From positions 11,497 to 75,496 of IMG/VR virus record IMGVR_UViG_3300033075_001053: 64,000 bases of DNA; one strand, written 5' to 3'. The notes below the pieces were generated by a model, which was not told the DNA's origin, did not search any database, and was given only the letters and a program-made list of their open reading frames with translations. How positions within the stretch are numbered: position 1 is the first letter of the stretch; every line of letters starts with the position of its first letter. This document shows, piece after piece, positions 4,864 through 64,000 of this stretch. The DNA is from a virus (Duplodnaviria; Caudoviricetes). The position numbers were made by a program, and so were the translations under genes.

Positions 4864-7800
4864 TATGTTTGGTCGTATGATATTGGAAGCGTCGGGTGGG
4901 TTCCTGCAGATCCCTTGACTCCAACTTTAGTTACGCTAACTGATCCTTCTTTGATCTTGATGTATCGGTCTGATCCGGTTTCGTGACGGAAGCGAATGTT
5001 GAGCTTATCTACTCCACTTGTGAGTTTGATAATATCTGTGCCGGTAATAAAGAACTTGGACCCCGATTCAGGAACTTCGGTGGCGCTTATGACGCCGTTA
5101 TTCAGAAGTGCCTGGCGTTCGGTTGCTGCAAGCTCAAGATCGGTATTAACATTTAAGGTTCGGTAGTGTGTGTCTCCAATAAACAGCGCAATCTGTGGAT
5201 ACCACACATCGGCTGCAAGTGTATTGCTTGTTGGGTAGCGCCCAAGTCCAAACATCCGAACAGATACAGAGAGAATTATGTCTTCTGTTTCGTCGTGCAT
5301 GACATACCACGGAGGGTCGGTAGCCTCTGTCTCGTCAGCGAAGACCCACCCCGCATCGTCATTGATATTCTGAACATGGTAGTACAACTTCTCCCAGGTT
5401 CCGGTAGCTATAGTTTTGTCGGTCGACCGCGCCCCGGATATTGTGAAGAAGTTTGAATCCCAAGAAGTATTCCAGTTGTAATTGACCAGAGATATCTTGC
5501 TGGTGTGAGCTGTGGCCGTGTCGTGAATGGCAACGATGCCAAACTGATTGTCGACAAACTCCAAGTCAGTGACTTCGGGTTGGTCCAACCCCATCGCCGT
5601 TACGGTCAATGTTGTGCCGGAAATCATCAGTAAGTCATTGACGCCGACGTAGGTACGAACAGAGCCAATTCCAGAAAGCGTTCGAAGGCCAAATGTATAA
5701 GGGTCGCTATAGGTTCCCGACCCTGTCATGATCTTGTAGATCGGGGTTCCGGATCCAAGATTATCAATGTCGTAATAAATCTCGGTACCGGAGGCGAACA
5801 GCTCAATCTCATCGGCATGAATGGTCATTCCAAGACCTGTGCCGGCGATGATTGATTTGAAGTTGACTTGGTATGGAGAGGCCAGCGTTCCTGCGCCTGT
5901 GGTGTTTTTATAGACTGCTCCACCGGTGCCAACGCTATTAAACTCCCACATACGGTTATTGTAGATTTCAATGTCATCGGCGCTAACATTGAAAGCAATT
6001 CCGCTTCCTGGGATCAAGGATTTGAGATGAGCAACAAACGGATCGGCCTCTGTTCCCGTCCCTGTGGTGTCGCGCCATATTCCTGACCCGGTACCCACGT
6101 TGTCGACCTCAAAGTAATTCGATCCTGAGACGAGGATTGTGTCCGATACGGTAGAGACAGAGATCCCTCCAGTCCCACTTATTCGTTTGATGTTGAAAGT
6201 AAACGGGTCACCAACTGATCCATCCCCTGATGTATCACGGTAAATATCCTCTCCGGTTCCAACGCCACTTGCGGCGTAGTAGAGAGTAAGCCCGGTTCCT
6301 GAGACAATGATTTCGTTATCGTCTTCTGAGGCATAGATTGAGATTCCTCCAGCTCCGGTGAAGGATCTAAAGTTGAGATAAGAATTGGTTCCGTCATACG
6401 CAATCTTTCCTTGATAAACTCCCATGCCACCGCCGACATTGGCTCCGAGCACAGAGACGTTGAGCATATACGCCCCACCCGAGCAAGCAAGAAGTCCGAG
6501 ATCATTTGATACTCCAAAGTTCCTGAACGCGAACAGAGAATTTGTGCCACTCGCTTCGGTCTTCCAATACCAGTTATAGGGGGTGTCCAGAGCCACGCAA
6601 TAACCAGAAGCAACAGCCTCATACCCAGAGGCCGAGATCATGATCTCATCAGCAAGGTCGTCGACTATAATACCGGGCCCGGCTAATATAGTTTTGAGAT
6701 GGAAAGTATTATTGACGCCTGACACAGTCGTGTCTCTCCATACATGACCGCTGCCCACGCCGACGTTATCCATATCATAGGTACTTCCTTCTCCGGCTGT
6801 TCCTGAGATCGTCAGGAAGTTTGTCCCTGATATTACGGTGATGGTTCCAGCCCCTACCAGACCTTTGAAGAACAGAGTAACGTCGCCGTTAGATGAGGTC
6901 TTGTGGTCGTAGACCGGAGTTCCGCCAAGGTTACTTCCGGTAACAGTATGATGGAAGGTGATGTGGTAGTCGTCCTGCTGAACGAATAGGTCTCCGGTTA
7001 CAGAAAGTGTCTTGAGTTGGACAACGTGATCGCTTGCGTTGATCGATCCGATTCGCCCTTGCCAATCGTCCGCCCCAACGCCGATAAACGTCACCCATTC
7101 TCCAACTACGTACCCCGCTCCGCCGTCGGCAATAATGGCTGTTGGTAGTCCGCCAGCAATGGTAACCACCACCGTCATGTCGGCGCCGCTGCCACCGGTT
7201 GTTGTACAGTAGTAAGTTCCGTCTGCATCGGCTGTCCCTGGGGTGACAATATCGAAGGTTAAAGCTACGCCGCCGGTTCTTGTGTTGAGGTAGACTTCGC
7301 CCGTATCACCGCCGATGTTCCTGAAGGTGTACTCTGTCGGAACGAATTCCGTTCCAGAAACAATAATATTATCCCCGTCCTCGTAGACCGTGACATTTCC
7401 AACCCCGGAGATTGTCCGCAGATTGAAAACGAATGGATCTGAGATCGTTCCTGATCCTGTAATGTCACGATAAACTCTGGATGCTCCACCAACATTCTCC
7501 ATGTCGTAGTAGAGCTGAGGCCAGAGATTGTTGATGATGATTTCTTCGTCTGTGTCTGAGTACAGAACCTCTATTCCACTACCGGCAACAATCGTTCTAA
7601 AGTGAAGGACAGATCCACTATAGGTTTTGTGTGAGTACCACTCAAGACCGGAGCCAAGATTATCCGCTTCAATATCAACGTCAAGGATGTAGGCTCCGCC
7701 AGCGCATTCGCTAATAGTAAGATCGTGGGCGCCTCTGAAGTTTCTAAAGACAAACGACTTTGTATGAGTCCCGCTATTGGTTACGGTCTGCCAGTAGAAG

Positions 7801-49930: not shown

Positions 49931-50930
49931 TGGTTTTCCCTGAATTCATTATGAGATAACGTCGTTTCAAAATATCCGCCGATGAACACGCCAGCTCTGT
50001 CTTCACTCCACAGAGCGAAGCGCCTATCTCTCTGCCCATTTGCTGCAGGGTTGATATCCAGCAGAAGCCAGCAGGCAAATTGTGTTACTCTAAGGCGTTT
50101 CAGTCTCATGTAACGTCTTCCCTATTAGGTTTCTTATGGAGCGTGCTACGAATCTTCGGTCACAACTTAACGCCATAGTATTTGGTACAGACTCAAGAGA
50201 CATCAGTTTAACTACCAAATGAACCCAATCATTTCTTTCTAATTCATTCAGTCTCATGTATGTTCCTAAAAATCTGCCCTCGTTCTGCGCTAAAGGATCC
50301 GAATTCTTTAAGCTGCATCATCTTGATAGCGTACAGAAAATTAAACTTTTCGACTTGGAAATATGGCTCTGTTGGAGCGTCAAAAAATGCTTCAAGTTTT
50401 ATCTTCTTGGGCGATGGTTCTAAATTAGTAAGCTTCATACTTCCTCATGCAGAACGTGATAGCACAGTTCCAGCAGTAGATTGAGGTGGCCTTTCGATTC
50501 AATACCGAAGAGTTCTGCAGGGTGCGTACCTTTCGCGAAGATAATAACGCGGTCGCCGTATAAGAATGGCCCCGATGTCAGGGGACGAGCTCTTTGTATG
50601 AACATATCACGTTCTTTCAGTTTCATTGTCCCTCCTGTTCGATGTGCGCCGCAATCTCCTCGCCTACTACGAACATATCCCATATCATTGCATCGTAAAC
50701 ATAAGGCATCGGAATAGATTGAATGATGACCCCCGCACCTTGAATCACGGGTTGGTACTCGTTGTTTAGTATGGGGTTTAGACACATGGATCCACAATCC
50801 TAATCCGTGCAGCGTTCAGGCAGGGCATTACGATGGGATTCTCTGGTGGCCATGTCAACCCAACACAATAAACCGGATGGCTATTGAAAGGGGCGCTTTC
50901 CTTTATGTGCTTTGTTAACTGCAATCTCAT
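49927..50930 (-). other. Six translationally coupled short ORFs: 49927-50109, 50090-50257, 50244-50438, 50435-50626, 50623-50787, 50778-50930
   Basis: Translated by hand; 50-64 aa each with overlapping stop/start junctions. Three are absent from the ORF track; the track start at 50797 is better placed at 50626. Confidence 0.55.
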
Positions 50931-50960
50931 AGATTACCACCCATATAAAAATTGGATAGA

Positions 50961-51001
50961 GAAAAAAAAGGGCAAGAAGCATTTTGAGATACTTCTTGCC
51001 C
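50961..51001 (-). terminator. Rho-independent terminator
   Basis: 10-bp stem GGGCAAGAAG/CTTCTTGCCC followed on the minus strand by T9. Confidence 0.85.
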
Positions 51002-51019
51002 GTTCGTGTGCGAAGGATA

Positions 51020-51346
51020 TTAATCTCCCGCTTTGCGAATTGCTTTGGCATACGGGTCGTACTCTTGTTGAATGATGACCCGGTAGTATCCTTCTTCTAC
51101 CACAATCTCATCGTGCTCGGCCTTTGTGTCGGTGCCAGTATTAACGTGACGAAGTGACGACCCTTTCGGGGCTTTCACGTAGAGAACCCCATCCTTATCC
51201 TCGAAGAGCTCTGCGTTGTCACTCATGACATGAGCGTGGTTCTGCGACTCTCCGACGGCCACGACGTTTGTGTCGAGCTTTTTAACTGCCAGTGGAAGCT
51301 CATCCACTCTTTCAAAGGCGACGTCGCCTTGACGGTACTGTACCAT
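51020..51346 (-). CDS. Conserved RQGDV-motif small protein (usual partner of DUF6745)
   Basis: YRQGDV...VGESQNHAH...EHDEI...GYYRVIIQQEYDP. Confidence 0.7.
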   Translation of the reverse strand: MVQYRQGDVAFERVDELPLAVKKLDTNVVAVGESQNHAHVMSDNAELFEDKDGVLYVKAPKGSSLRHVNTGTDTKAEHDEIVVEEGYYRVIIQQEYDPYAKAIRKAGD

Positions 51347-52279
51347 TTAGGTCTCCTGTGTTGGTTGAAACTCAGCGGTTTGTTTTCCGAACGTCCATGC
51401 TTTAGCCTCCCATACATTCTTTCCGGGAGGAACGATCAGTAAGTATTCTCTCATTGAAGAGGGACACTTACAACTGTAAAAATAAATATGTTCTCCGGCC
51501 AAGGTGTCAACATCTTTTGTACGAAGAAGTTGCATAAGATTCCCTTGGTTGTCGGTGTCCTCGTCCACCGTTTCTGTGTCGAGGATCTTGAGTAATCGAG
51601 CAGCCCCGAGACGTTCCCTATAGGCTCGGCGAACTTCAACGTTTGTAAGGCCGACAAATTCCTCTCGGGTAATTGAATCAGGGGTCATGATCAGTTTCTT
51701 CGGGACCTTAACCCCTCTCCAGTAATATCCTCCGGTGTTATCGTGAAAGGTAAGAGCCGGGCCGCTGTCCGAGTGAAGCCGGCGAACTCCGTTTAATTCG
51801 ATCCAGTCTATGTGTTTGGGCATATCACAAACAATACAGAGGAAGTCGAACTGGAGTGTAGCAAAGATACCTTTCTGAATGAAGTCTTTGTACCGGTCGA
51901 ACTTCTCGTTGTTGAGTTTCCCTATTTGTGTCTGGTGATCGTAGTAAGACACCCACCCGTAGTCGGCCACATCGATATACCACGCCCATACATGAGGTTC
52001 ATACTCGGCTTCCTGGGCCATGAGCACAAGAGCTTTTCTGTAGTACTCCTCTGGGTCGTGAGTAGCGATCTCCTGTTCTGAATCACAAATAGATTCCACA
52101 GCCATAGCAATGTACTGACAATGCCGTGGGCTTATTCCGAAGAGAACAAGCGGCTTCGGAAGCTTGGAAAGCTCATACACCCATTCAACCCCCTGGCGGA
52201 CCGCGTCCTTGTCTGTCCTGGTTTTACAGTCATAGACAAGATTGACGTACTTCTCGCGTACTTCATCGAGTGTTATCAT
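51347..52279 (-). CDS. DUF6745-like domain protein
   Basis: RLHSDSGPALTFHD..GGYYWRGVKVP...NVEVRRAY..RLG and KCPSSMREYLLIVPP...EAKAWTFG. Confidence 0.7.
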   Translation of the reverse strand: MITLDEVREKYVNLVYDCKTRTDKDAVRQGVEWVYELSKLPKPLVLFGISPRHCQYIAMAVESICDSEQEIATHDPEEYYRKALVLMAQEAEYEPHVWAWYIDVADYGWVSYYDHQTQIGKLNNEKFDRYKDFIQKGIFATLQFDFLCIVCDMPKHIDWIELNGVRRLHSDSGPALTFHDNTGGYYWRGVKVPKKLIMTPDSITREEFVGLTNVEVRRAYRERLGAARLLKILDTETVDEDTDNQGNLMQLLRTKDVDTLAGEHIYFYSCKCPSSMREYLLIVPPGKNVWEAKAWTFGKQTAEFQPTQET

Positions 52280-52787
52280 TTGAATAGTAGAATAATCATA
52301 GTAACAAAAAGGCCAGCCACGACAATGATTGGCACCAACTTAAAATCAGTGCTGAGCAGCTTTTCGAATCCATCTATAAGAGCAGCCCTTTCCCGTCGGC
52401 GGTACTCCTGCATGGCAATGTGCCTATCCCGCCACTTTTCGTGCAGCTCTTGAGTAGCGTCCTGGTACCCGTCAAACGTGAGCTTTTCCATCGGCAAATA
52501 TACAATATTGTTGAACAAGTTGCAAAATTATTTTAAGAATTGCGGTCTCTTTCCCAGACTTTCAGGTTGTTGATGAGGTAATAATCCAGCACCAGCATCG
52601 GGATCATGATGATCAGCTTGAATTTGATGAGGTAATACAGAAGAACCCCATCGGCAACCAGACGAATGTAGGACCATCCTCGAGCGAAGAACAGGAGCCC
52701 AAGGCGAATAAGCGTGGGCTCCAGTCCTTGTGCGGCGTAGATAATGAGCGCAATTACGAAACCCGCATCGGCATCAGCAGCGCCCAT
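52276..52787 (-). other. Two small membrane proteins (52276-52518; 52533-52787)
   Basis: C-terminal TM in the first; several hydrophobic segments in the second. Confidence 0.45.
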
Positions 52788-54013
52788 TTCTTCCCTTCTA
52801 TGATGATGGCTCTTGTTGGAGACTCAATGGCCAGGGTGACTTGAGATTCTTTGTTAAGACAACGCTTTAAGTAGTTGACATTAAAGCCGATAACATCATC
52901 GAAGGTTGACTTCACCGGGATTTCGAACATTGAATCCGGCCCATCGTGTTGTTTGAATGTAAGGTGACACTTTCCTGGAATCAGGCGGAAGTTCATGATG
53001 ACTTGGAAGTACTTCTTGCCGACGGCTCTAATGGCCTCAAGTACCGTAGTGGCATCCAGCTCTACGTTGGCTTTGTAGTCTTTGGGAATGACGTTGTTGT
53101 ACAACGGGAACCTCTCATCGATGAACCGAACGGAGTAGGTACTGTTACCGCACTCAAAGATCAACCTTTCGTTGGTGTAGGAAACCTTCGCCCACTTAAG
53201 GAGCTTGATGATCTTGGTAGGGATGATGAATTCCTTGTCGGTTTTGAACTCGAATGGGTGTTTGCACAGAGTATATCCATCGGTGGCCGCAGCTTCGGTG
53301 CCGTTGATTAAGATTCCTGTCATGGCCGGGCGGTGCTCTTCTTTGCTCACGAAGTCCGTGAGGTGATGAATCTCTTCGAAGTTTTTCGCGCAAAGATACT
53401 CGCCTGTAAGTGGGACGTTAGTAGGGAAGTCTGAGTCCAGACTGACATTAAACTCATTTCGACCGGAGGAGTGGGTGACAACCGCCAGCCAAGATCCATC
53501 ATTGGCAATTTGCTGGAACTCAAAGACCACATTCCCTTTAAGCCTGGACAAGATCTCCAGATCTGAGTAGTGAATGAGGAATGACCCCGCTCCGGAGGTA
53601 AAGACCGGGACGTCGACGTGAGCGTAAAGCTCCAGGTCAAAGGTAATCAGTCGGGCTGTTCGGGCCCCGACCACCACGCGAACGTTCTCAAGCACCGAGA
53701 GGGCGTTAGACTTCACCTTTGGCAGTTGGGACAGGGCAGACTTGATTGTCGTTGCCTGAATAGAAAAAGTTCCAGGGATAACCCCGGTAGGCGCGGCTTC
53801 TGTTTGAAGGTTCTCTTCCTCTGTTTGAAGATCCTCAAAGTCCTCGGTTTCTTCTGCTTGCAAGTCCTCCAATTCTTCCGCTTGAAAATCTTCGTTGATC
53901 TCAGGCTCAAGAGTCTCAACCGGCGGAGCAAAAACACTCGAGACATCAGGTTCGCTGAAAGCTCGCACAAGTGACCGGCTAAGTCCGGTCAGGTCAATAG
54001 TGATATTATTCAT
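52754..54013 (-). CDS. dnaN: DNA polymerase III beta subunit (sliding clamp) with acidic N-terminal extension
   Basis: RPAMTGI, ATDGYTL, RFPLYNNVIP, IGFNVNYL and C-terminal ALLMPMR are beta-clamp signatures. Confidence 0.9.
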   Translation of the reverse strand: MNNITIDLTGLSRSLVRAFSEPDVSSVFAPPVETLEPEINEDFQAEELEDLQAEETEDFEDLQTEEENLQTEAAPTGVIPGTFSIQATTIKSALSQLPKVKSNALSVLENVRVVVGARTARLITFDLELYAHVDVPVFTSGAGSFLIHYSDLEILSRLKGNVVFEFQQIANDGSWLAVVTHSSGRNEFNVSLDSDFPTNVPLTGEYLCAKNFEEIHHLTDFVSKEEHRPAMTGILINGTEAAATDGYTLCKHPFEFKTDKEFIIPTKIIKLLKWAKVSYTNERLIFECGNSTYSVRFIDERFPLYNNVIPKDYKANVELDATTVLEAIRAVGKKYFQVIMNFRLIPGKCHLTFKQHDGPDSMFEIPVKSTFDDVIGFNVNYLKRCLNKESQVTLAIESPTRAIIIEGKKWALLMPMRVS

Positions 54014-54038
54014 AACCTCTTCAAATATGTTGATAAAA

Positions 54039-54673
54039 CTAAATGTACCTATCTAATACTTCAAACTCTTTTGCCTTCAGCCACACAACGGAGTCCATCC
54101 ACCACGAAGAACTTCCATTGGTATACATAGGAACGGGAGGATTGATCTCACTCAATAGCCTCCCGTTTGGATAAAAGTCTTTGACGGCTCTATGGACAAA
54201 ACTCATAGAGTCAATCCCGTCAGGTACCTGGAGCACCATCGGGATTGTCCTCAGGCGGTCCGTCTTCTCCCGTATGTATATCAGTGCGTATCGCATATTG
54301 TGTTCCTATGTGTGCTACTGCGTCAAGATGTTCTCCTGCGATGTTCGACTCAAACGTTGAGTCGGCCAATGTCCTGTAACATTCGTCCTTGACCTTCTGC
54401 ATGGCGCCAAGAAGAGCCAGCCGGACTGAGCTGTAGGACAATTCAGTCGGTGTAAGTTCATCTGCCCATTGTTCAAGCTGAGTCATGTTAATCCTTGATA
54501 TAAGCATTAACACCAATGGTCACTTGCTTTCCGTTGACCATAGCCGTGCTCGGTTGATTGCCGCGGGTCGAGGCCACGACAATTGACTTACCTGACTTTG
54601 AGCGCGATGGCTCGATTGGAAGTGTAATAACCAAGTAATTTTGGTTATCGCGGGTTTCTACTGATGCCTTCAT
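54039..54673 (-). other. Three short hypothetical ORFs (54039-54296; 54220-54486; 54488-54673)
   Basis: ORF track plus ribosome-binding sites; the last contains the SKSGKSIVVASTRGN motif seen in small phage proteins. Confidence 0.5.
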
Positions 54674-54712
54674 AACAACTCCTATAAGTTAAATTACTGG
54701 CAATATCGCCAG

Positions 54713-54778
54713 TTGCGCCGCCGGTGGGAGTCGAACCCACACAGTAAGTGGATGAGACTTGCTGCTCCTTGCAGCGGC
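54713..54778 (-). ncRNA. tRNA-like element lacking a D-stem, CAT anticodon (pseudo-tRNA or tRNA mimic)
   Basis: Acceptor GCCGCTG/CGGCGGC; T-arm GTGGG-TTCGACT-CCCAC; anticodon arm AAGT-CTCATCC-ACTT; only 10 nt in place of the D-arm; ends G-CAA. Confidence 0.6.
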
Positions 54779-54827
54779 AATCAGAAAGGGAAAAGCCACA
54801 CCCTTTCTGGGGTTGATCGTAACGAGC

Positions 54828-55776
54828 TCACACGCCCGGTGGCCTACCCATCATATCTCTTACTCTCACACAAAGTTCAGGTTCTTCCATGTCAATGTCA
54901 GCGCAGAATCCTTCAACTCCTGCAGTGGGCTCCATAGAATACACTGCCCACTCTTCTTCTTCGTTGTCCTGGTCTCTATCTACCACGATGACGTCGTCAC
55001 CGTAGACGTTCTGGACTATGCCTCCTTCAATCACGACGATTGTCATTTCACCCTCCCACATACCATCCATTCAGAGTCAGGGGCAAAAGGATCGGGGGAG
55101 TGGAGGAATTGTTCAAACAACACCCCAAGCTTGTACGGCTGCCCACCTAATAGTATGTGCTCTGTCCAAACTCCAAAGATTCTGTACTTCTCCCCATTAG
55201 GATGAAATTTATACCAATCCCCCAGCGGCACTTCCTTAATATCCGTCCACTGTTCATAGACTGGTGGAGTAGGTTTAGGGGTGATGCGGAGTTTTACGCG
55301 ACTGTCAAATAAAGTCACCATCCATGCAACGTTTGTTACTTTTAACCATTCGTTTTCTGAAACTTCATACTCCAACTCCGTTCTATCAAACGCATCGCAG
55401 AACTCACGGATTTGTGTTGTTGTGTAGGTCATGCCTTCTCCTCCTCATTAGTTAATAAATCTGGGTATTCGTTTAGGATGGTGTCGATGATCTCGTGCAC
55501 ATCAAAATCATTGACTCCGTATCTAAGCGCAGAGATGCCGTTAATGGCTAAATGCGTTGGTTCTTTGCTTTTCAAATCAATTGCACTCTTTACTTTCTCC
55601 AAAATCTCCCTCACCGTCTTATTCGTCTGGGCTTGGGCGATGTCTTTGAGTTCTGTTATCTGACCTATCAGCTTCGCATTGTCCACGCTTGCTTGATACG
55701 CCTGACGTTCGAGGTCATGGATCATCGCCAGTAATTCTTCTCGTGTCATTTCTCTTCCCGGTGCTTCATTGCTCAT
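54828..55776 (-). other. Three hypothetical ORFs (54828-55046; 55043-55432; 55429-55776)
   Basis: Starts reassigned to the ATGA-overlap positions; the third is a coiled coil. Confidence 0.55.
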
Positions 55777-56273
55777 TGTAGTTGTTCCTGTGTTGTGATA
55801 ATATTCAATCTTGCAAATTCGCCGTGACATATTTGAGCCATTCGGTTGTATGCCAGTGCCGCTTCTATCTCTGTATCGTAGAGTCCAATGTGAGTCTTTT
55901 TGCCATTCTGCCTTATCTGTGCCCGCCATCGACCCTTAAAGAGACATACACCCAAATACATGGACATAGACGACCGCGCCGATCTGCGATTAGCGTTGTT
56001 TTGCGCACGAGAGCATATTCGAAGATTCGCTCTTGTATTGTTCAGCCCATTCCCATCTATGTGATCTACAAAAAGTCCGGCAGGACACTGCATGATGAGC
56101 CTATGCATAGCAATGCGCTGCTGTTTTTGTGTTTCCTTGCTATAGATGTTCGCAAAGGCATACCCACACGTACCACCAATTCGCGCATAATAATGCCACT
56201 TGTATCTTGATATAAGCTCAAGATCACAGTCGTCAATTACGCAGATTTTATTTTGACTTATAGCGATGTTCAT
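55773..56273 (-). CDS. HNH-AP2 homing endonuclease
   Basis: MHRLIM...VDHIDGNGLNNTRANLR (HNH) plus YLGV...WRAQIR..GK..HIGLYDTEIEAALAYN (AP2). Confidence 0.9.
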   Translation of the reverse strand: MNIAISQNKICVIDDCDLELISRYKWHYYARIGGTCGYAFANIYSKETQKQQRIAMHRLIMQCPAGLFVDHIDGNGLNNTRANLRICSRAQNNANRRSARSSMSMYLGVCLFKGRWRAQIRQNGKKTHIGLYDTEIEAALAYNRMAQICHGEFARLNIITTQEQLQ

Positions 56274-56539
56274 TGTAACCGATCCTTGATAGTTTGAATC
56301 TTGTCTTCAAATGGGTCTGGCGATACTATGTTAATCCCATATCTACATTGCCAATCATATTGTTGCGCCTTCAACACAGCCAACTTCACCATAAGCTCTA
56401 CGCGGTCGGCTCTTATGTACTTGATACGGTTGTATGTATTCATGTCATGTCCGCCGATGGTTGCCCTGTATGGAGAGTTGTATGAGTTTGCCTCAGAGGT
56501 ACTTAGATACACTTCCTTCGGCGCTTGTTCAGGTGTCAT
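56270..56539 (-). CDS. Hypothetical protein (89 aa)
   Basis: APKEVYL...IKYIRAD pattern; shares its first 20 bp with the upstream gene. Confidence 0.55.
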   Translation of the reverse strand: MTPEQAPKEVYLSTSEANSYNSPYRATIGGHDMNTYNRIKYIRADRVELMVKLAVLKAQQYDWQCRYGINIVSPDPFEDKIQTIKDRLQ

Positions 56540-56928
56540 ATCGCATATTCTCCAAATGATAGTATGTTGTTATTCACAATGAGTATGACTGGTTTGTTTT
56601 GCTCTTGGCAAATACTCAGAGTCATGAACGTACCCCTGCTCTTGCCGTCCCAGAACGCCATTACAACGTCAGAGTCTTGCACGATGAGAGAGTTACGATG
56701 ATACGCTGCACTCTTGCCGTACTTGTCCCATTCTGGTTTGTGGATGATTGTCGGAATGCCCTGCGCTATTGCGTACTGTTCTGCGTCCGTATCGACACCT
56801 CTTGCACCTCCACTCACGAGAGTCACAATGCCGTACTTCTGAAAGAACGAGTACAAAAAGTGCTTGATGTCGTACTTGTACTCACGAGAGCCGACTACTC
56901 CGAGACGAGGCGCTTGTTCAGGTGTCAT
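56536..56928 (-). CDS. SLOG-family protein (DUF2493/YspA-like)
   Basis: GVVGSR, VSGGARGVD, EWDKYGKSAAYHRN, MAFWDGKSRGT. Confidence 0.85.
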   Translation of the reverse strand: MTPEQAPRLGVVGSREYKYDIKHFLYSFFQKYGIVTLVSGGARGVDTDAEQYAIAQGIPTIIHKPEWDKYGKSAAYHRNSLIVQDSDVVMAFWDGKSRGTFMTLSICQEQNKPVILIVNNNILSFGEYAI

Positions 56929-57898
56929 GATTGAATCCTCTCAAAGAATCTTCGCGTCAATCTCATTCCCTTGTTACCTATGAATATGTAATCATCGCTC
57001 CATCCTGTTTTAGGATGCACCCAATACATAAAGCACCATCCGTATTTGCCACGCGGCTTGTCGTTGCCGAAGTATTCGTCGTAGGATTTCGTTAACCGAA
57101 CGAAAATCCATTGAAAAAACACTCTGTTTACAAATTCGAGTTTGGTCATGATAGTAGTACCTCATTGTGCTGTTTGACGTACTCTACGTTCTTAACCTCC
57201 GAGTACCTTGCACCAATCCAACGGTTTCCGCTCTCGCTTTCGTAAGCTACCACCGCATCATCCGGCACATCAGCCAGTAGTTTTATGAGTTCGATCTTGG
57301 TCATGGGTTCATTTGGTTTGAGTTCACAGTATCGTTGTTAGTAAGAAACAGCGCGAGCGTTGCATCGTCAATCTTGCGAGACACCAACTTCTTATCCGGC
57401 ATGGATCGCTTAAGTTTTGCTCTGATATTCGAGAGCAATGTGTGTCTTTGAGCCTTAGTACAAGGGACAACTATTGCTTTGCCATCAGGTACGAGGAGCA
57501 ATTCTCGAAATACATCCATAGTATAACTATGCGTTATGCCACCCTTAGGTGCGGGTTCATCAATAATTTGGAATTTATTCATTTGTAGTTGGTTCACCCC
57601 AAGAAATTCTATAGGCACTCTCACCTGAACTAATTGGTTCTACTTTGTACCCAAGCCCCCTTAATTTCTTAACAGTCTCATCATAGTAGATTCGGGCGTA
57701 GACTTGCGGAACAGATGATGATCGTGCTACTCGACCGATGAGATCGGTAGTGCAGGTAAACTCCTCTTGCATCTGTCTCTGTTTAAGCACAATCTCTGAT
57801 TCAATATTTGCGCGGCTTAGTTCTCTGGCTTCTTCGGCTGTCAGGGGTTGTTCTTGTGTGTTTGTTGGGATAACTCGACCTGGATTCCATAGTTTCAT
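56925..57898 (-). other. Four short ORFs (56925-57149; 57146-57304; 57301-57582; 57575-57898)
   Basis: Overlapping start/stop chain; 57146-57304 (52 aa) found by hand translation. Confidence 0.55.
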
Positions 57899-57899
57899 A

Positions 57900-58301
57900 T
57901 TAGTCTTTCGTGATTAAAAATTCAAACCTTTGTTGCATTTGCTCTAAATCGCGTATTCTGTGTGTCTTTGAATGGCAAGAATCGCAAAGGGAAACCAGAA
58001 GTGACAAGTTTTGATGTTCGGTACCTCGGGTCGTATACTCAATATGATGGACTTGAATGTTCAGCACAGAGCCGCATTCCTTACAGATGTTGTTGTCTCT
58101 TTTGAGAACCAATCTTCGAATCTTTTTCCAGTATGGGGTTTGCAGAAACTCAGAGTAATCGCGAGGGAGATTTTGAGCTAATTTTTCAAAATCATCCCTC
58201 TTTTTATTTTTCTTGCTCTTCTTCTTACTCAGGTGCTTACGGGTCGCTTGCTCGGCTCGCTGCTTCGTCAGTCTAATCCTACGTTCCAGGTCCTTATCCA
58301 T
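57900..58301 (-). CDS. Small HNH endonuclease with Arg/Lys-rich N-terminal helix
   Basis: YWKKIRRLVLKRD..CKECG...QVHHIEY...LVSLCDSCH..H; N-terminus RRIRLTKQR...SKKKSKKNKKR. Confidence 0.85.
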   Translation of the reverse strand: MDKDLERRIRLTKQRAEQATRKHLSKKKSKKNKKRDDFEKLAQNLPRDYSEFLQTPYWKKIRRLVLKRDNNICKECGSVLNIQVHHIEYTTRGTEHQNLSLLVSLCDSCHSKTHRIRDLEQMQQRFEFLITKD

Positions 58302-58337
58302 GTGTATTCTCTGGTGAGCGTGAACTGAGGACACAGC

Positions 58338-58673
58338 GATAGAGACCCACCCTTTTGCAAGGATGGTGGTCGCCTATCTCGAAGTATTCTCCGGAGCCGC
58401 GAGTTACCTCGGACAGTCTACGTAGTCGTGCCGCTCGTAGACATGCAGAGTCCTTTGGATCTTGGCACAGATCCCCAGCTTACACTAATCTGCTTTGCGC
58501 TCGTGCTGTCCATACGCTTCCCTTGAGGACGTCGGCCATGCACAGGTGGGTCAAGGTGTCTTGCATAGTAGAAAAACAAATGCCTCTGATTCGAAGGGCG
58601 GGTGCGATAGCGGCAATCGGCAAGATTTACGCTATGTGTCTTTCGACACGTCCACCCTCCTAATCAGAGGCAC
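58338..58673 (-). ncRNA. Putative large structured non-coding RNA of unknown class
   Basis: Gap of more than 390 bp with no credible gene; at least 10 stems paired by hand, four GNRA tetraloops on the minus strand and a 5-bp loop-loop complementarity. Confidence 0.65.
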
Positions 58674-58724
58674 TCTTAAATTGTCTTTGTACTGACCGAT
58701 TGCTATTTTCGCTGGTCAAAATTA

Positions 58725-61700
58725 TCAATTCTCCTCTATAACAGTCAAGCCTAAGTTTTCCACAGCGTTAATTGCTTTGGTGAGCCAGTCTGTTGTGGTG
58801 ACACCGACAACGTCATCCTCTCGGTAGAGAAGGACTGCCTCATCGGTCGTCACAGCGACCGGCACCGGACAGACGACAAACTGATCCATCTCAAATCCCG
58901 TACAGTGCCAGTCGTCGACCGGCACCCCGGTCAAATTCTCCAACTCCTCACACACCTTCTGATTGAACTCCTTCCGGGTGATCTTGAATGGATCGTCGAC
59001 CGGGTAGAAGCCGGATTCTTTGTCGAGCTTGAACGAATCTTTGACGGGACTGCCAACAAATGACGGGATTCCTAAAATTGCGGTAGCCTCTGCTTCCTTC
59101 AATGATTCAGCCTGAATATAGGTAGTCCCGCTCATCTGCCATGTGCAGGGTAGTTTGTAGGTTTTCATATTCCCTCCGGATAGTCATCGTAAGCAATATC
59201 TTGATTAACCTCAAACGATCCATCAACAAAGTTTCCTTCTGGAAGCGGAGTGTCTGGGCCTTCACACTTCTCGATTGCCTCCTCTAAAGATTCTGCTTCG
59301 ATTTCGAAGATGCTTGACATCATCCAGACCGCAAACGGTTTGTAGGTTTTCATTATGCCTCCTCGCCATCAATGAACCATCTGTTGCCAGCGTAAGAATC
59401 CTTCGTGCTGCATTCTGTAATCTCAGAACAAAGCATTCTCATCGAAGTAACGACGGTTCGAGGCAAGTGCGCACTACGCTGCACCGCTATCTGGTGTCCG
59501 GCCAACTTTGCGTTGACAAGGTTTATGATTAACTGCTCTTTCACTCTTCCTCCTGTTCATAAATTCCAACAAGTCTGTAAACGTCCTGCCAGGTCTTATC
59601 ACAGCTAATACAGCAGATCGGCTGGGTGCCCAAGGTTCCGTCGACGTCAACCCCACCTACGGCCTCCACATCACTGCCACAGTACGGGCACTTTGATGGA
59701 TTGTCGAGGTATTTGGTCTTTTGTTCGTCTGTGAGTTTCATATCCTCTTCTCCTTAATCATTATTTCATTCGCCATACCACAGGCAAAGCCAAGAGCGAA
59801 GTAAAAGAACCCCGCGATCTGTCTATTGTCGATGGTGTCAATTGCTACACATCCAACGAACGCAACGAGTCCGAGAATTAGGAATTTCATGCTTCCTCCA
59901 TACCAGCGTTAAGAATTCTGTTTTCGTCATGTGTTGACTGAACCGTGTGAGGGTAGCGTTCGGCGTGGAATTTTGTAAACTCGTTCGTACAGTGTTCCGC
60001 CTGCCACTCCATCGCCTCCAAAATATCCCTACACCCTGGGAACTGCAGCACCAAGCGTCTTGCCTCATCTGGCGGCAGACTTGTGTGGATCTTGTTGGTT
60101 CGGGTGTAGATCTCAATGGCCTTCTGTTCTCTTGCTGTCATACCTTCTCCTTAAATCTAACGTAAGACTCACTACTCATACTTGGGCCAATCGGGATACC
60201 CTTAAATTTGGCCTCTTTTCCTGGGGTAATGTCCTTTGGACTCTCACCCGATTCCACGACAAAAAACTCCCAATCGGACGTCGAAAGGAGAATTCTTTCC
60301 GGCTCGAGTCCAATTCGTCGACCCGTGTCAAGGACGTCAAGAATGCGATTTTTTACCCCTGGGCGCTGCAATTGAATATTCACACCGCCTCCCATCCACG
60401 AGACCACTGATGCTCATACTCATCCTGGCAAAGCTCCTTACCTCGGCGCAAGTAACAGGGCTTGTACTTCTCCCAATACTTCACTCCATCTCTGTAGAAG
60501 ACATGGAAGGTCGGGACCATCTTCCCATCCACCCAGATGTGATTATGGGGTTCGCTAATAGCAAAGCCGGGCTTCCCACCCACTGTGCAGAAGATCGGCG
60601 GCAAACAGCCCAAATTGATGTCCCACTCTTCTTCTGTGATTTCGACGTCTACATCTAAGGCGTCGATGTTAGGTAAGGTCATAACGTCTCCTTCTGTAAG
60701 TCTAACAAGTTGCATTTCATTCCTAAATCACTCACGTAAGGCATAATGTTCTCCCACGACTCTCGCCACCAATTACCACAGAACCGGCAGCCGACGATAG
60801 GAAACAGCCCTTCTTTTGTGTTTTTAATCCTCACCAGTTCAAAAGCGTAACTTTTCCCGTTCCAATGAGAATAGTAGTCATCGGTCTTTTCCTGCAGTTT
60901 CAGGCCGTGGTAACACTTTACATTCAAAAGAAGCCCAGATTCGTGCTTCATCTGAAATGATCCGGGCTCAATCTCAAATCCAGGTTTATAGTCTTCACCA
61001 TAACCCGGCAATTCAGAGGCTTTGTGCAGTCGGTAAGTAGCCTTCCCTTCGTAACCCCCTGGAAGAACATCGTTCTCCTCTGGGACAGGGATTCTCCAGA
61101 AGCAATTAATGACATCACTTGGGTCCAGTGAGCCGCGGACTTTCTCCACCTTATTTCTGTCGGTGTACCTCAGATTCCTGATGTCTTCACAACAGCCAAG
61201 ATAGATCTCCGTCCGGTCGCTCTTTCTCAGTGCGTATTCGCTCATGATTTCTCCTAATTCTTTGGAATTCGACCAGTACGTTGAAATTCTTCGTAATTCT
61301 TCATGTACGACTCCTCTATGGCAATGCGCTTTTCGTACTCAGCCATAGTCTCACTTCGTACGCGATTGATGCGCAAATGGATAGAGGTAATATCGTCATC
61401 TTCCTCTATTTCGAAGTAGAAGTTCTCACCACGGGCCACATACTTTTCAAGATCAGCCAGTGTGAACATATCACCGGTCAGATCGACGCTATCAATGTAG
61501 GCTATCTTCTGAAATCTCCGATCAATCTTAATCGGATACATATACGCGCTCATGATTTCTCCACTTTGGCAAATCCAACATCTTTGTTATCAAGGTTCCG
61601 AATTGGCATTGTGTCTTCTCGGTCGAGGTTTATGTACCTCAGAGCGTAGGAAACAGCATCTCGCACATCTTCGTTAATAGTGGTCTGATCAAATCGATTC

Positions 61701-62165
61701 AGATCCACTTCAATCAATAGTTTCATCTCAAAACCTCCTCCAAATGTGAAGCCGACAACTTCGCCAGTGCGCGCGCCACAAACTCATCACAAGGGAAGTC
61801 TCGCTCAACCTCATAGATGAACTGAGCCACGATCTCTCGGACAGATACAGTCGTGTCTCTTCCTTCCAATTCAATTCCAACGGCCTCTTTTAGCCCTTTT
61901 TGGAGCAATTCACTCATTTGATACCTCTCAAGTGTTTGTACGAATCCAGCCAGACATGAGCCATTTCAGTTGCTTCCTCTCGTGATCGATTTTTGTTGAT
62001 CCCGAATATCTTCAGCCTCCGAGCGCCTTCAAAAGCAATAGCTTGTCGAGGGTAAATCCCTACTCTATAGAGACCCTTCTGGCAGCCGAAAGGCGAATCG
62101 TCAATTTTAGGATGAGGCCGACGGCGGATCTTGTCCAGCTCTTCCTCTGTGTATATGTGCTTCAT
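58725..62165 (-). other. Array of short early-type ORFs: 58725-59168, 59165-59353, 59353-59544, 59541-59741 (CPYC/CISC Zn ribbon), 59738-59890 (membrane), 59887-60141, 60138-60383, 60380-60682, 60679-61245, 61254-61553, 61550-61726, 61723-61917, 61914-62165
   Basis: Near-continuous ATGA/TGATG coupling and GGAG(G) sites; no recognisable domain except the Zn ribbon. Confidence 0.6.
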
Positions 62166-62181
62166 CGTTCCACGTGAAACG

Positions 62182-62613
62182 TTAAACAAGTCCTCTCTCT
62201 GAGAGAGCGGTGTAGTTATCGCTTGTGAGAATCAAATGATCCAAGAGCTTGATTTCGAAAAGCTTAAGTCCTTCACCAAGGCTCTTAGTAACCGCGATGT
62301 CTTCCCTTGACGGTTCTGCGTTCCCAGAGGGGTGATTGTGAACTAATACGGCGGCGCGAGCGTTCGAGAGAATCAAGAATTGCGCGATCTGCTTCGGGTC
62401 GAAGATCGAGGCGTTCAATCCGCCTTTTGAGTGCAGATACGACGCAAAGACTCTACTGGCACTATTGAGCGCGAAGATCCTCATTTCCTCATGATGATCC
62501 ATACAGTGCTCAAAGTACGGCTTCGAGACCTCGTGCATATCGGCGGGGGCTCTAATCACCTTCGAGGCTTCACTTCCTCTTTTGTAGAGGATTTCAGCTT
62601 CTTTAATGTTCAT
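62182..62613 (-). CDS. RadC-like JAB domain protein
   Basis: EEMRIFALN...VLVHNHPSGNAEPSREDIAVT...LLDHLIL. Confidence 0.9.
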   Translation of the reverse strand: MNIKEAEILYKRGSEASKVIRAPADMHEVSKPYFEHCMDHHEEMRIFALNSASRVFASYLHSKGGLNASIFDPKQIAQFLILSNARAAVLVHNHPSGNAEPSREDIAVTKSLGEGLKLFEIKLLDHLILTSDNYTALSERGLV

Positions 62614-63207
62614 TTCAGCACGGTGATAACCTCACCGAATAGGTTAGTAATAATGATTGAAGTAATCTCATGGTCAAACAGAAAAAGAGAAGCTCTTTCC
62701 AGAGCTTCGGAATAACTCTCTTTCGGCTCAACTCTTTCTCCCAGCTTCAAGAGAATCATAAATGTCCCATGTAATCAACAACTTGGATTTTCTGCGTAGC
62801 TTCGCCCAAAATCTTCCCAGAATCGTCACATTCGTACCACTTCCCATCAACGAGCGTGAAAAGCTGCCCGATGATGCTTTCGTAATACTGATGTTCGGGC
62901 GGTAGCTTCCTAAGAGCGTGAACCAGAATCATACAACCTCCATAAATGAACTTTGGAAGGCTCTTTCGTAAAAGAGCCCGCAAAACTCACCCCAAATACT
63001 GAATCTCGGCACGTATGCCATATTCGGTCAAGAATCGCTCCTGAGTATCAAGAGCGTGCTCTTCGTCAGTCATTTCGACGACGTGACCCGAAACCACTAC
63101 TAAACACATAACTCCTCCGTGAATAGATCATGCCCAATATCGGGCTATCTTCTTGGCACCAAAATCAAGAAGACGACACAAACGAAAATCACAAAACCAT
63201 ATTCCAT
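62610..63207 (-). other. Four very short ORFs (62610-62759; 62756-62943; 62987-63109; 63145-63207, a 20-aa hydrophobic peptide)
   Basis: Hand translation; three have GGAG(G)/GAAGGAAG sites or an ATGA overlap. Confidence 0.5.
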
Positions 63208-63229
63208 ATCTTCCTTCTCCGATAGGTAT

Positions 63230-63252
63230 AAAAAAAGGGGCTAAAAAGCCCC
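63230..63252 (-). terminator. Rho-independent terminator
   Basis: GGGGCT/AGCCCC stem followed on the minus strand by T7. Confidence 0.75.
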
Positions 63253-63271
63253 TGAAGTTGCGAAAATTGCA

Positions 63272-63655
63272 CTATTCAATACTGTCAATTCTACCACTTA
63301 GTCCAGTAATTACAATTACTTGTGGTTTGTCAGTTATCATACGTTTGAGTGAAGCACACTCTTGTAAGAAACCTACACGTTTCTTCTGTGGTTTGTCTCG
63401 TACTTTGTGACGCGTGGGCTTATTGTGTTCCAGATCGTCTAAGAACGTAGCCAGATCGAAGCCGTCGAAATTTGCCGATAATGTCAGACTGTCAGCAATT
63501 TTGCGCGCCTTTGCTTCGCTTGTCAGAAACGACGGTTTGCCTAATCGCGTCCAGCCAGTCTGTATTTTTCGCCCAGACTCGGAGAGAACAGAGTATAACC
63601 GTACTTTTCTGTTCCCCCTGTCATATTTAGCGAATTCTACTCTAAATGTAGTCAT
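63272..63655 (-). CDS. Hypothetical protein (127 aa)
   Basis: ORF track; basic, no recognised motif. Confidence 0.5.
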   Translation of the reverse strand: MTTFRVEFAKYDRGNRKVRLYSVLSESGRKIQTGWTRLGKPSFLTSEAKARKIADSLTLSANFDGFDLATFLDDLEHNKPTRHKVRDKPQKKRVGFLQECASLKRMITDKPQVIVITGLSGRIDSIE

Positions 63656-63735
63656 AAAGTATCCTAATAGAACTCATTTAGGGGCTAATAGTGTGTGAAA
63701 AAATCAATTTTGACCGAAACGAAAATCAGCCAGCT

Positions 63736-64000
63736 CTACGCTGGCTCTTCTACTGTGTTTTGTACTGTGTTTTGTGGAAGTTGTTTTCTCATGCTTGAAT
63801 ATGACAAGTCCATCCCTCCAATTCGCTGAGTGTGACCAATGGACGGCTGAACCGCGATCAAGCCGTTAGCCCCAGTTAGGACAATTTCACCCGCTTGTTC
63901 TTTTCTCTTCATTTTGTGAAGGATAGAAGACAAGCAGTAATCGTTCCCAGCCAGAGCCGCTAAACTTGCTGCGTGAATGTCAACGTAAGATTTGCCAGAC
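63736..64000 (-). CDS. 5'-truncated hypothetical protein
   Basis: The frame stays open to the window end (SGKSYVDIHAAS...). Confidence 0.5.
   Translation of the reverse strand, partial: SGKSYVDIHAASLAALAGNDYCLSSILHKMKRKEQAGEIVLTGANGLIAVQPSIGHTQRIGGMDLSYSSMRKQLPQNTVQNTVEEPA

Follow-up and report, generated by a model that had tools for sequence, protein, structure and literature searches.

The early region of this virus genome carries a compact Y-shaped RNA (about 145 nt, ~58713-58567 on the minus strand) that, judged from the comparison of two related phages, is a genuine folded element under very strong selection, and it is an RNA that has not been described previously. In this element, a stalk of about 32 bp, composed of a basal helix, a 12-bp helix (P2) and a 9-bp helix (P3), leads into a three-way junction from which a GAAA-capped hairpin (P4) and a further hairpin (P5) emerge. 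Pairing between the 5' leader and the loop of P5, as read from the two sequences, defines a pseudoknot that is absent from an earlier note on this DNA. If our model holds, the Y RNA represents an undescribed RNA family in which about a hundred positions, helices included, are frozen, whereas a helix of nine pairs has been almost completely rewritten and still pairs. This pattern separates what must only pair from what must be read, and it thus points to a specific RNA-protein interface, possibly one with RNA polymerase, where two early gene blocks meet. Since the Y RNA is known so far from two uncultivated phage lineages only, its wider significance is limited for as long as further members or a host are lacking.

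The window, that is, the whole stretch of 64,000 nucleotides that was analysed, forms the final part of an IMG/VR virus record of 75.5 kb, for which a completeness of 97% is estimated. It codes for a terminase, a portal protein, an SU10-type major capsid protein and an integrase, and from the integrase we judge that the phage may be temperate. From ~64000 down to ~49000, nearly all of the genes are small, closely packed and on the minus strand, and the sole large gene-free stretch of this early region lies at 58302-58724 (423 nt, minus strand). The proteins neighbouring this gap are nearly all singletons in exact-protein cluster look-ups. The gap is made up of two different parts, the ~145-nt RNA element at its 5' end and the remaining 265 nt, and the features of both are listed in Table 1.

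Table 1. Features of the RNA element and of its flanks, with identities between the window and contig L011 of the related phage
Feature	Coordinates in the window	Strand	Remarks
147-aa gene	58725..59168	-	Upstream of the RNA; protein 57% identical to P0160; anchor that gave the only relative; 58% DNA identity to L011
Last 52 nt of the 147-aa gene, including the -35 hexamer and ~40 nt upstream of the hexamer	58736..58787	-	49/52 identical to L011 (94%), synonymous sites too
Sigma-70-like promoter match, TTGACT-16 nt-GATAAT	58721..58748	-	TTGACT at 58748-58743, GATAAT at 58726-58721
-10 and discriminator region (22 nt before the leader)		-	73% identical to L011
Invariant 5' leader, AGCGAAAAUAG	58703..58713	-	11/11 identical to L011; begins at the predicted start
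Leader patch, 9 nt after AGCGAAAAUAG		-	2/9 identical to L011
Pseudoknot strand 1, GCAAUCGGU	58695..58703	-	Pairs with 58613-58621
Aligned segment	58694-58630	-	64/65 identical to L011
Basal helix, 5' strand, GUACAAAGACAA	58681..58692	-	Invariant; pairs with 58567-58579
P2, 5' strand, 12-bp helix	58662..58673	-	Pairs with 58580-58591; in the MFE and centroid folds; invariant in L011
P3, 5' strand, 9-bp helix	58652..58660	-	Pairs with 58593-58601; contains AGGAGG; two G-U pairs
P4 hairpin, GUGUC-GAAA-GACAC	58636..58649	-	Invariant in L011
P5 hairpin, AUAGCG/CGCUAU	58607..58635	-	Stem invariant; the 17-nt apex is the second variable patch
17-nt P5 apex		-	5/17 identical to L011
Pseudoknot strand 2, GCCGAUUGC	58613..58621	-	Directly abuts the P5 3' strand
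Aligned segment	58612-58578	-	35/35 identical to L011
P2, 3' strand, then U-rich tract, UUUGUUUUU	58567..58591	-	Tract doubles as the 3' strand of the basal helix, as read from the sequence
All sequence 3' of 58578		-	37% identity to L011, random level
Variable spacer with the second domain and three GNRA hairpins	58302..58566	-	No homologue found; no Rfam match
Free-standing HNH endonuclease gene	57900..58301	-	133 aa from ATG; 144 aa from the GTG at 58334 chosen by the gene caller
107-aa gene	57575..57898	-	Homologue directly after the spacer in L011 (L011 6190-6522), 30% identity, E 2e-11

On the minus strand, the whole gap folds at -157 kcal/mol, with a z-score of -5.85 against shuffles, and the plus strand has a z-score of -1.51. 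Nearly the whole of this signal comes from the 5' domain: the minus strand of positions 58567-58692 alone reaches -58.0 kcal/mol (z -7.84), a value that none of the shuffles equalled, and a sliding-window scan agrees. For the 265 nt at 58302-58566, the minus strand has a z-score of -1.68, and 12 of 200 shuffles fold equally well; the plus-strand value is +0.93. The antisense strand of the element also folds (z -5.6), 10 kcal/mol more weakly. On these features of the sequence, the minus strand is favoured as the sense strand because its fold is better by 10 kcal/mol, because it bears the GAAA loop and G-U pairs, which occur in P2, P3 and the pseudoknot of the minus-strand RNA, and because the neighbouring genes run in the same direction.

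The 147-aa protein encoded just upstream of the element has a single relative, P0160 (57% identical), which is found on four Logan contigs (L011-L014). These contigs are identical across the element, so that two independent lineages are available in total. The 8.5-kb contig L011 is syntenic with positions 63064-56800 of the window, at ~74-89% DNA identity in the shared genes, and in it the homologous upstream gene is followed by a 418-nt gene-free gap and then by a 110-aa gene, which is a homologue of the window gene at 57575-57898 (30% identity, E 2e-11) and not an HNH gene. All four contigs carry the RNA, with 167 bits in a search with R1, a model that was built from the window and L011 sequences. 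The matches to R1 amount to exactly one copy per genome, with none in other loci or in two terminase relatives; a second copy of the RNA within a genome was looked for with this model and none was found. Pairwise alignment of the window with L011 gave the identities by segment. Across the Y core, 99 of 100 positions are kept, compared with the 58% DNA identity of the adjacent upstream gene, and only two patches of the RNA vary between the phages, one in the leader and the other at the apex of P5. Similarity to L011 stops at 58578. The L011 copy of the Y RNA folds with a z-score of -7.74.

In both phages, the two variable patches are mutually complementary. The window has GCAAUCGGU (58703-58695) paired with GCCGAUUGC (58621-58613) over 9 bp, and in L011, GUGUGUUGGUAG (5793-5804) pairs with UUGCCAGCACAC (5871-5882) over 10-12 bp in the same register. 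Nine aligned pairs form in both phages; six of these are changed on both sides, one carries a single change and two are unchanged. This covariation is that of one pairwise comparison, the window against L011 (alignment A3), in which P2 (12 bp), P3 (9 bp), P4 (5 bp) and P5 (6 bp) show zero variation. When the pseudoknot partners were slid by 1-3 columns, pairing fell to ~40%, and of 200,000 trials with shuffled patches, a single one gave both phages a helix of 9 bp or more in a shared register. Since the 3' partner abuts the 3' strand of P5, the new helix can stack on P5.

The basal helix is a second, weaker sign of selection for structure, as it is preserved with unrelated 3' strands. In the window, GUACAAAGACAA pairs with UUGUUUUU-C-UAC, and in L011, the same GUACAAAGACAA pairs with a displaced strand, UCUUUGUAC, which sits past the end of the conserved block and beyond the U tract. 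Such a position of the 3' strand in L011 is more easily reconciled with a longer transcript that reads through than with a small RNA that is terminated. Helices that do not vary at all are atypical for RNA families, and the invariance might also reflect a role at the DNA level.

These results bear on several claims of the earlier note. It had held that no credible gene lies in 58302-58724, and this was borne out, as the ORFs in the gap are all short and none of them matches Pfam or PHROG; a hidden protein gene is ruled out on the same grounds. All of the stems and loops that it listed are present where it placed them, and its 5' domain, with the 12-bp and 9-bp stems, the GAAA hairpin and the 6-bp stem, is kept in the second phage. 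Its observation of four GNRA-capped hairpins on one strand is correct as well and represents a real enrichment: the 423 nt hold four on the minus strand and the plus strand has none, where windows of this size average 0.28 across the genome. The remainder of its fold fared less well: neither the second domain closed by GGACAG/CUGUCC, which lies in the unconserved 265 nt, nor the kissing loop GUGCC/GGCAC has a counterpart in L011, and the same is true of the proposed UCUUGC/GCAAGA pairing; the hairpin loop pairs with the 5' leader instead. Its label of an unrecognised ncRNA suits the 5' domain, with no Rfam 15 match, extreme conservation and a covarying helix; the remaining 265 nt are unconserved and fold with a z-score of -1.68.

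Nothing in Rfam detracts from the novelty of the element: Rfam 15 gave nothing at the gathering score for the whole window, a 1.1-kb piece or pieces of 161 nt and 301 nt, and lax filters with E up to 10 on the short pieces gave only noise far below the threshold. No match to the core sequence was found in the literature. Among known RNAs, phi29 pRNA, retron msr/msd and the riboswitch classes are ruled out by the lack of an Rfam match and by the wrong context, and a hammerhead-like reading of CUGAUUA...GAA was rejected because the segments are the two strands of P2. A search of the gap against 50,697 phage records (blastn, distant mode) returned nothing, as did tblastn of both flanking genes against phages, and no RNA homologue came from exact and degenerate word scans of viral, metagenome and genome contigs or from scans of viral and metagenome contigs anchored on the HNH, the 147-aa and the clamp-like gene. 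A profile search started from the two upstream-gene homologues added no further relative, and two IMG/VR terminase relatives (47% and 29% identity) carry no RNA on the fragments examined. On contigs L006-L008, which have the SLOG gene in common with the window, the similarity breaks off precisely on the upstream side of this gene, and these contigs contain no RNA.

The 265 nt that follow the element could be a fast-evolving spacer or sequence that arrived with the HNH gene. They are 37% identical to the 251-nt spacer of L011, which is the random level. The window spacer has three GNRA hairpins against ~0.2 expected; the L011 spacer has no GNRA hairpin and folds mildly and symmetrically on its strands (z about -2.2 on both).

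Signals resembling a promoter and a terminator frame the Y RNA. The sequence TTGACT-16-GATAAT is the only 10-of-12 sigma-70-like match within 50000-64000, and TTGACT-16-GATAGT occupies the corresponding position in L011; shuffled sequence yields promoter-like matches as often as this region does. From a distance of 7 nt to the -10 hexamer, we infer that transcription starts at A58713, the first base of AGCGAAAAUAG. Sense-strand promoter-like sites were found in neither spacer, that of the window or that of L011. Directly after P2 comes UUUGUUUUU in the window and UUUUUCAU in L011, and in both phages the transcribed strand thus has the GC-rich helix followed by a U tract that marks an intrinsic terminator or attenuator. 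From its sequence, P2 with the U tract looks like an intrinsic terminator that closes the branched domain. A simple terminator scan did not call this site, because its 'loop' is a branched domain; a branched structure of 90 nt is an unusual terminator.

The best explanation that we can offer, and one that we would put at about an even chance, is that the Y RNA is a promoter-proximal regulatory RNA or attenuator located between two early gene blocks. Transcription would begin at the sigma-70-like promoter inside the end of the upstream gene, at the first base of AGCGAAAAUAG, and the GC-rich P2 and the U tract would terminate or attenuate it, giving an RNA product of ~140 nt. The element would in this way set the read-through from the first early block into the next, which comprises the HNH gene, the 107-aa gene and the genes onward, and the fact that no promoter-like site was found in the spacer for the downstream genes supports gating by read-through. 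The helix positions are invariant while the pseudoknot covaries, which suggests that a protein reads the Y body, for example RNA polymerase or a factor of the phage or the host, and that the pseudoknot needs pairing only. A more far-reaching proposal, which we regard as rather unlikely, is that the Y RNA is a new protein-independent controller of early transcription, either a polymerase-binding antiterminator or attenuator unrelated to put or an RNA-only heteroimmunity switch acting through the exchanged patches, and that, separately, the 265 nt are an unrecognised RNA travelling with the HNH gene.

The HNH gene itself stands apart from the RNA. Its protein belongs with two HNH families of phages, PHROG 144 and PHROG 119 (matches at E 1e-15 to 1e-14), and matches the Pfam HNH family weakly, just under the cut-off; its best solved relative is a phage HNH of 130 aa (5h0m), and an IscB chain in the PDB matches only the HNH core (E 1.8e-3), more weakly than the phage HNH does. 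An exhaustive search returned 22,022 homologues, none of them close, the best being 38-53% identical over the core, and the alignments with stand-alone HNH proteins of 120-130 aa begin at residue 10-15 of the window protein. The two closest small homologues examined (P0004 and P0008) have upstream gaps of 60-80 nt with no match to R1. No HNH gene was found on L011-L014 by tblastn, which covered the 8.5 kb of L011. In the window, the HNH gene sits between the spacer and the 107-aa gene, and at this place L011 has none, so that two related genomes differ in the presence of an HNH gene at a locus that is not within an intron. From its relatives and its absence from L011, we consider that it is a free-standing and probably mobile gene that probably came to lie beside the RNA by insertion; on the alignment of the two phages, it is an insertion/deletion difference between them that lies outside the RNA element. 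Elsewhere in the window, an HNH_3-AP2 gene (55773-56273) is also missing from a related contig, L008, whose flanks are up to 99% identical.

The earlier note had proposed a minimal RNA-HNH ribonucleoprotein, and this idea is unsupported, since the RNA occurs without the HNH in L011-L014 and the HNH homologues examined occur without the RNA. The HEARO/omega-RNA model matched neither the whole window nor 1.1 kb nor the 161- and 301-nt pieces, whether the gathering score was applied or E values up to 10 were admitted; no PLMP motif was seen in the 133-aa HNH sequence, whose only match in Pfam and PHROG is a generic HNH; and joint inheritance of RNA and nuclease, as in OMEGA systems, was not seen in L011-L014 or with P0004 and P0008. 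The suggestion of a ribozyme or an intron relic is likewise unsupported, because the flanking genes are complete and the Intron_gpI, group II and ribozyme models gave no match at E up to 10, even with lax filters; in an attempt by hand, no group I P3-P7-P8 core could be assembled. An intron interrupting a host gene was rejected because L011, which lacks the HNH, has an upstream gene with an identical end point and the same conserved C-terminus, and a split gene with an ORF-less intron (stop at 58727 and ATG at 58301 in frame) was rejected because both genes are complete on their own. A structured gap beside a small HNH gene is not evidence for an RNA-guided nuclease.

In falling order, the rivals to a promoter-proximal regulatory RNA or attenuator are an immunity RNA, a put-like antiterminator, an RNase III stalk, a DNA site and an RNA-HNH particle or intron. 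We think it unlikely that the Y RNA is a trans-acting specificity or immunity RNA working in the manner of the P4 CI RNA and the P1/P7 c4 RNA, which would be released by termination or processing and whose P5 loop would pair with the leader patch on nascent transcripts of its own promoter, the covarying patches being specificity determinants that prevent cross-regulation between related phages. The sole variable positions are indeed two complementary patches, almost fully exchanged (2/9 and 5/17 identical), the phage has an integrase and may be temperate, and the ~32-bp stalk is of the helix type cut by RNase III and hence a presumed substrate. However, a pseudoknot formed within one molecule is the simpler account of these observations, and diversifying selection on the patches is not needed because unconstrained sequence has fully diverged anyway (37% in the spacer); no second target was found above chance near a ribosome-binding site or elsewhere, and candidate trans targets of the P5 loop elsewhere in the phage and in L011 were limited to 8-10-mers at the chance level. 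A processive antiterminator or polymerase-binding leader like HK022 put, whose nascent RNA would let polymerase pass downstream terminators, seems doubtful to us: the promoter-like site that the element adjoins and the extreme constraint, which includes the helices as would be expected if polymerase reads the RNA surface, would agree with it, but the element is twice the size of put, has a stalk and a pseudoknot and no sequence likeness, is present in one copy per genome rather than the two of HK022, and ends in a terminator-like helix.

We find it just as doubtful that the element serves only as a processing or stability signal, with the stalk as an RNase III site for cutting the early polycistronic RNA and the fold as a protection of the ends. 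The near-perfect helix of 12 + 9 bp, the basal extension kept through different sequences in both phages and the location between two gene blocks would suit such a role, yet RNase III sites tolerate change and covary, and the 99/100 core, the junction, the GAAA hairpin and the pseudoknot would be left unexplained. An element that acts as DNA and not as RNA, such as a protein-binding palindrome, an origin or a recombination site, is most improbable. Both long inverted-repeat arms are invariant and the antisense strand folds well too (z -5.6), but the G-U pairs become A-C mismatches on that strand, which is 10 kcal/mol weaker, the GAAA loop is on the transcribed strand, the arms are ~60 nt apart, and RNA is where one typically meets compensatory change of the kind seen in the 9-bp pairing, whose partners are 75 nt apart. 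Very little credence can likewise be given to an RNA-HNH ribonucleoprotein (an omega-RNA-like guide with a minimal HNH of the IshB kind), to a ribozyme or intron that moves together with the HNH, or to the weak form of this idea, which involves the 265 nt and the HNH only. HNH-only OMEGA proteins do exist, namely IshB of ~180 aa (PMC11610941). The weak form can point to the absence of both the 265 nt and the HNH from L011 and to three GNRA hairpins where ~0.2 are expected; against it, the 265 nt fold only marginally better than shuffles and have no homologue. For the conserved RNA, a particle or intron of this kind is refuted, as the RNA is conserved without the HNH, HNH homologues lack the RNA, HEARO, group I/II and ribozyme matches are absent, and the HNH is of a generic phage type among 22,022 homologues.

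Each of the known systems shares some features with the Y RNA. The early RNA of T7 and the rRNA operons have RNase III processing stalks, which are long helices that covary freely. Similarly, the Y RNA has a long and nearly perfect helix formed by flanking sequences between polycistronic genes; unlike the Y RNA, those stalks have no conserved branched domain or pseudoknot. The P4 CI RNA (seqA/seqB/seqC) and the c4 RNA of P1/P7 are leader-encoded antisense immunity RNAs of ~70-77 nt, and their targets include downstream sites at or near the regulated genes. Like them, the Y RNA is a small folded leader RNA of an early operon whose loop can pair with a patch of its own transcript, the complementary patches account for most of the difference between related phages, and the complementarity of loop and leader covaries between relatives. 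In contrast, P4 CI and c4 have no stalk or three-way junction and no similarity to the Y RNA in sequence or model, a further downstream target at regulated genes or ribosome-binding sites was represented here only by chance-level 8-10-mers, and the pairing in the Y RNA may simply be an intramolecular pseudoknot. The OMEGA systems (IscB/IsrB/IshB; HEARO, RF02033) likewise place a large structured RNA directly upstream of a small HNH gene on the same strand, but the window locus lacks a HEARO match, PLMP, RuvC, an IS200/605 context and co-inheritance.

The put RNAs of HK022 lie downstream of early promoters, putL immediately and putR ~270 nt from the start, and act without a protein; they are ~70 nt long, comprise a triplex and two stem-loops arranged as a V, and there are two per genome (PMC9378689). 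The Y RNA resembles them as a promoter-proximal folded early RNA of a phage with strong sequence constraint, as would suit an RNA read directly by a protein machine, and it differs from them in its ~145 nt, its stalk, junction and pseudoknot, its single copy and its own U tract, so that the put pattern of ~70 nt, two stem-loops and two copies behind early promoters is not seen in it. With intrinsic terminators and attenuators, the Y RNA shares an A-rich 5' flank, a GC-rich helix with a U tract immediately behind it, and a location between a promoter and the genes it would serve; unlike them, it encloses a branched and pseudoknotted domain of 90 nt that is conserved at every core nucleotide, which goes far beyond what termination needs.

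The spacer that follows the conserved RNA is nearly equal in length in the window and in L011, the related contig that carries the RNA without the HNH gene (265 and 251 nt), and the two sequences are unrelated. Neither spacer contains an ORF or a promoter-like site. That phages with such compact genomes keep about 250 nt of seemingly free sequence suggests that it has a function not yet recognised.

Upstream of the RNA lie two paralogous genes, both present in L011, whose products each begin with MKTYK and whose start regions share a repeated 16-bp word. The 147-aa copy has a C-terminal extension that ends in 17 codons overlapping the promoter-like region; this overlap accounts for their conservation, which extends to synonymous sites.

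Features of the region in the window and their counterparts in L011
Feature	Window	Strand	L011	Remark
Upstream MKTYK paralogue	59165-59353	-	5128-5316	
147-aa MKTYK paralogue	58725-59168	-	5313-5771	
Leader AUAG with P5 3' strand CUAU	58704-58706 with 58607-58610	-		candidate alternative pairing
AGGAGG, 6-nt spacer, GUG, five-codon frame MSKDT-stop	58632-58661	-		inside P3/P4
Spacer 3' of RNA	58302-58566	-	5939-6189	
SLOG/DprA-like gene	56536-56928			similarity to L006-L008 ends at start codon
HNH_3-AP2 gene	55773-56273	-		second of its type in window

Within the RNA, the leader AUAG directly 5' of the pseudoknot strand recurs in the 5' strand of P5 (AUAGCG). By pairing with CUAU it could displace that strand and give an alternative fold; both segments are invariant, showing no covariation. 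P3/P4 also contains a perfect AGGAGG (58661-58656) with a GUG at 58649; this stretch, through the MSKDT frame to its stop, is invariant in L011 and wholly buried in helices. It may have arisen by chance, the strand being rich in G, or may be a feature connected with the ribosome.

Compared with the contigs sharing the SLOG/DprA-like gene but not the RNA (L006, L007 and L008), similarity ends exactly at the start codon of that gene (56928-56932), upstream of which all three carry another set of small genes; the gene start is thus a sharp mosaic boundary. The free-standing homing-endonuclease-type gene of 166 aa (HNH_3 and AP2) is missing from L008, whose flanks match the window at ~99% (55458-55790) and ~87-95% (56516-56932), a clean presence/absence polymorphism.
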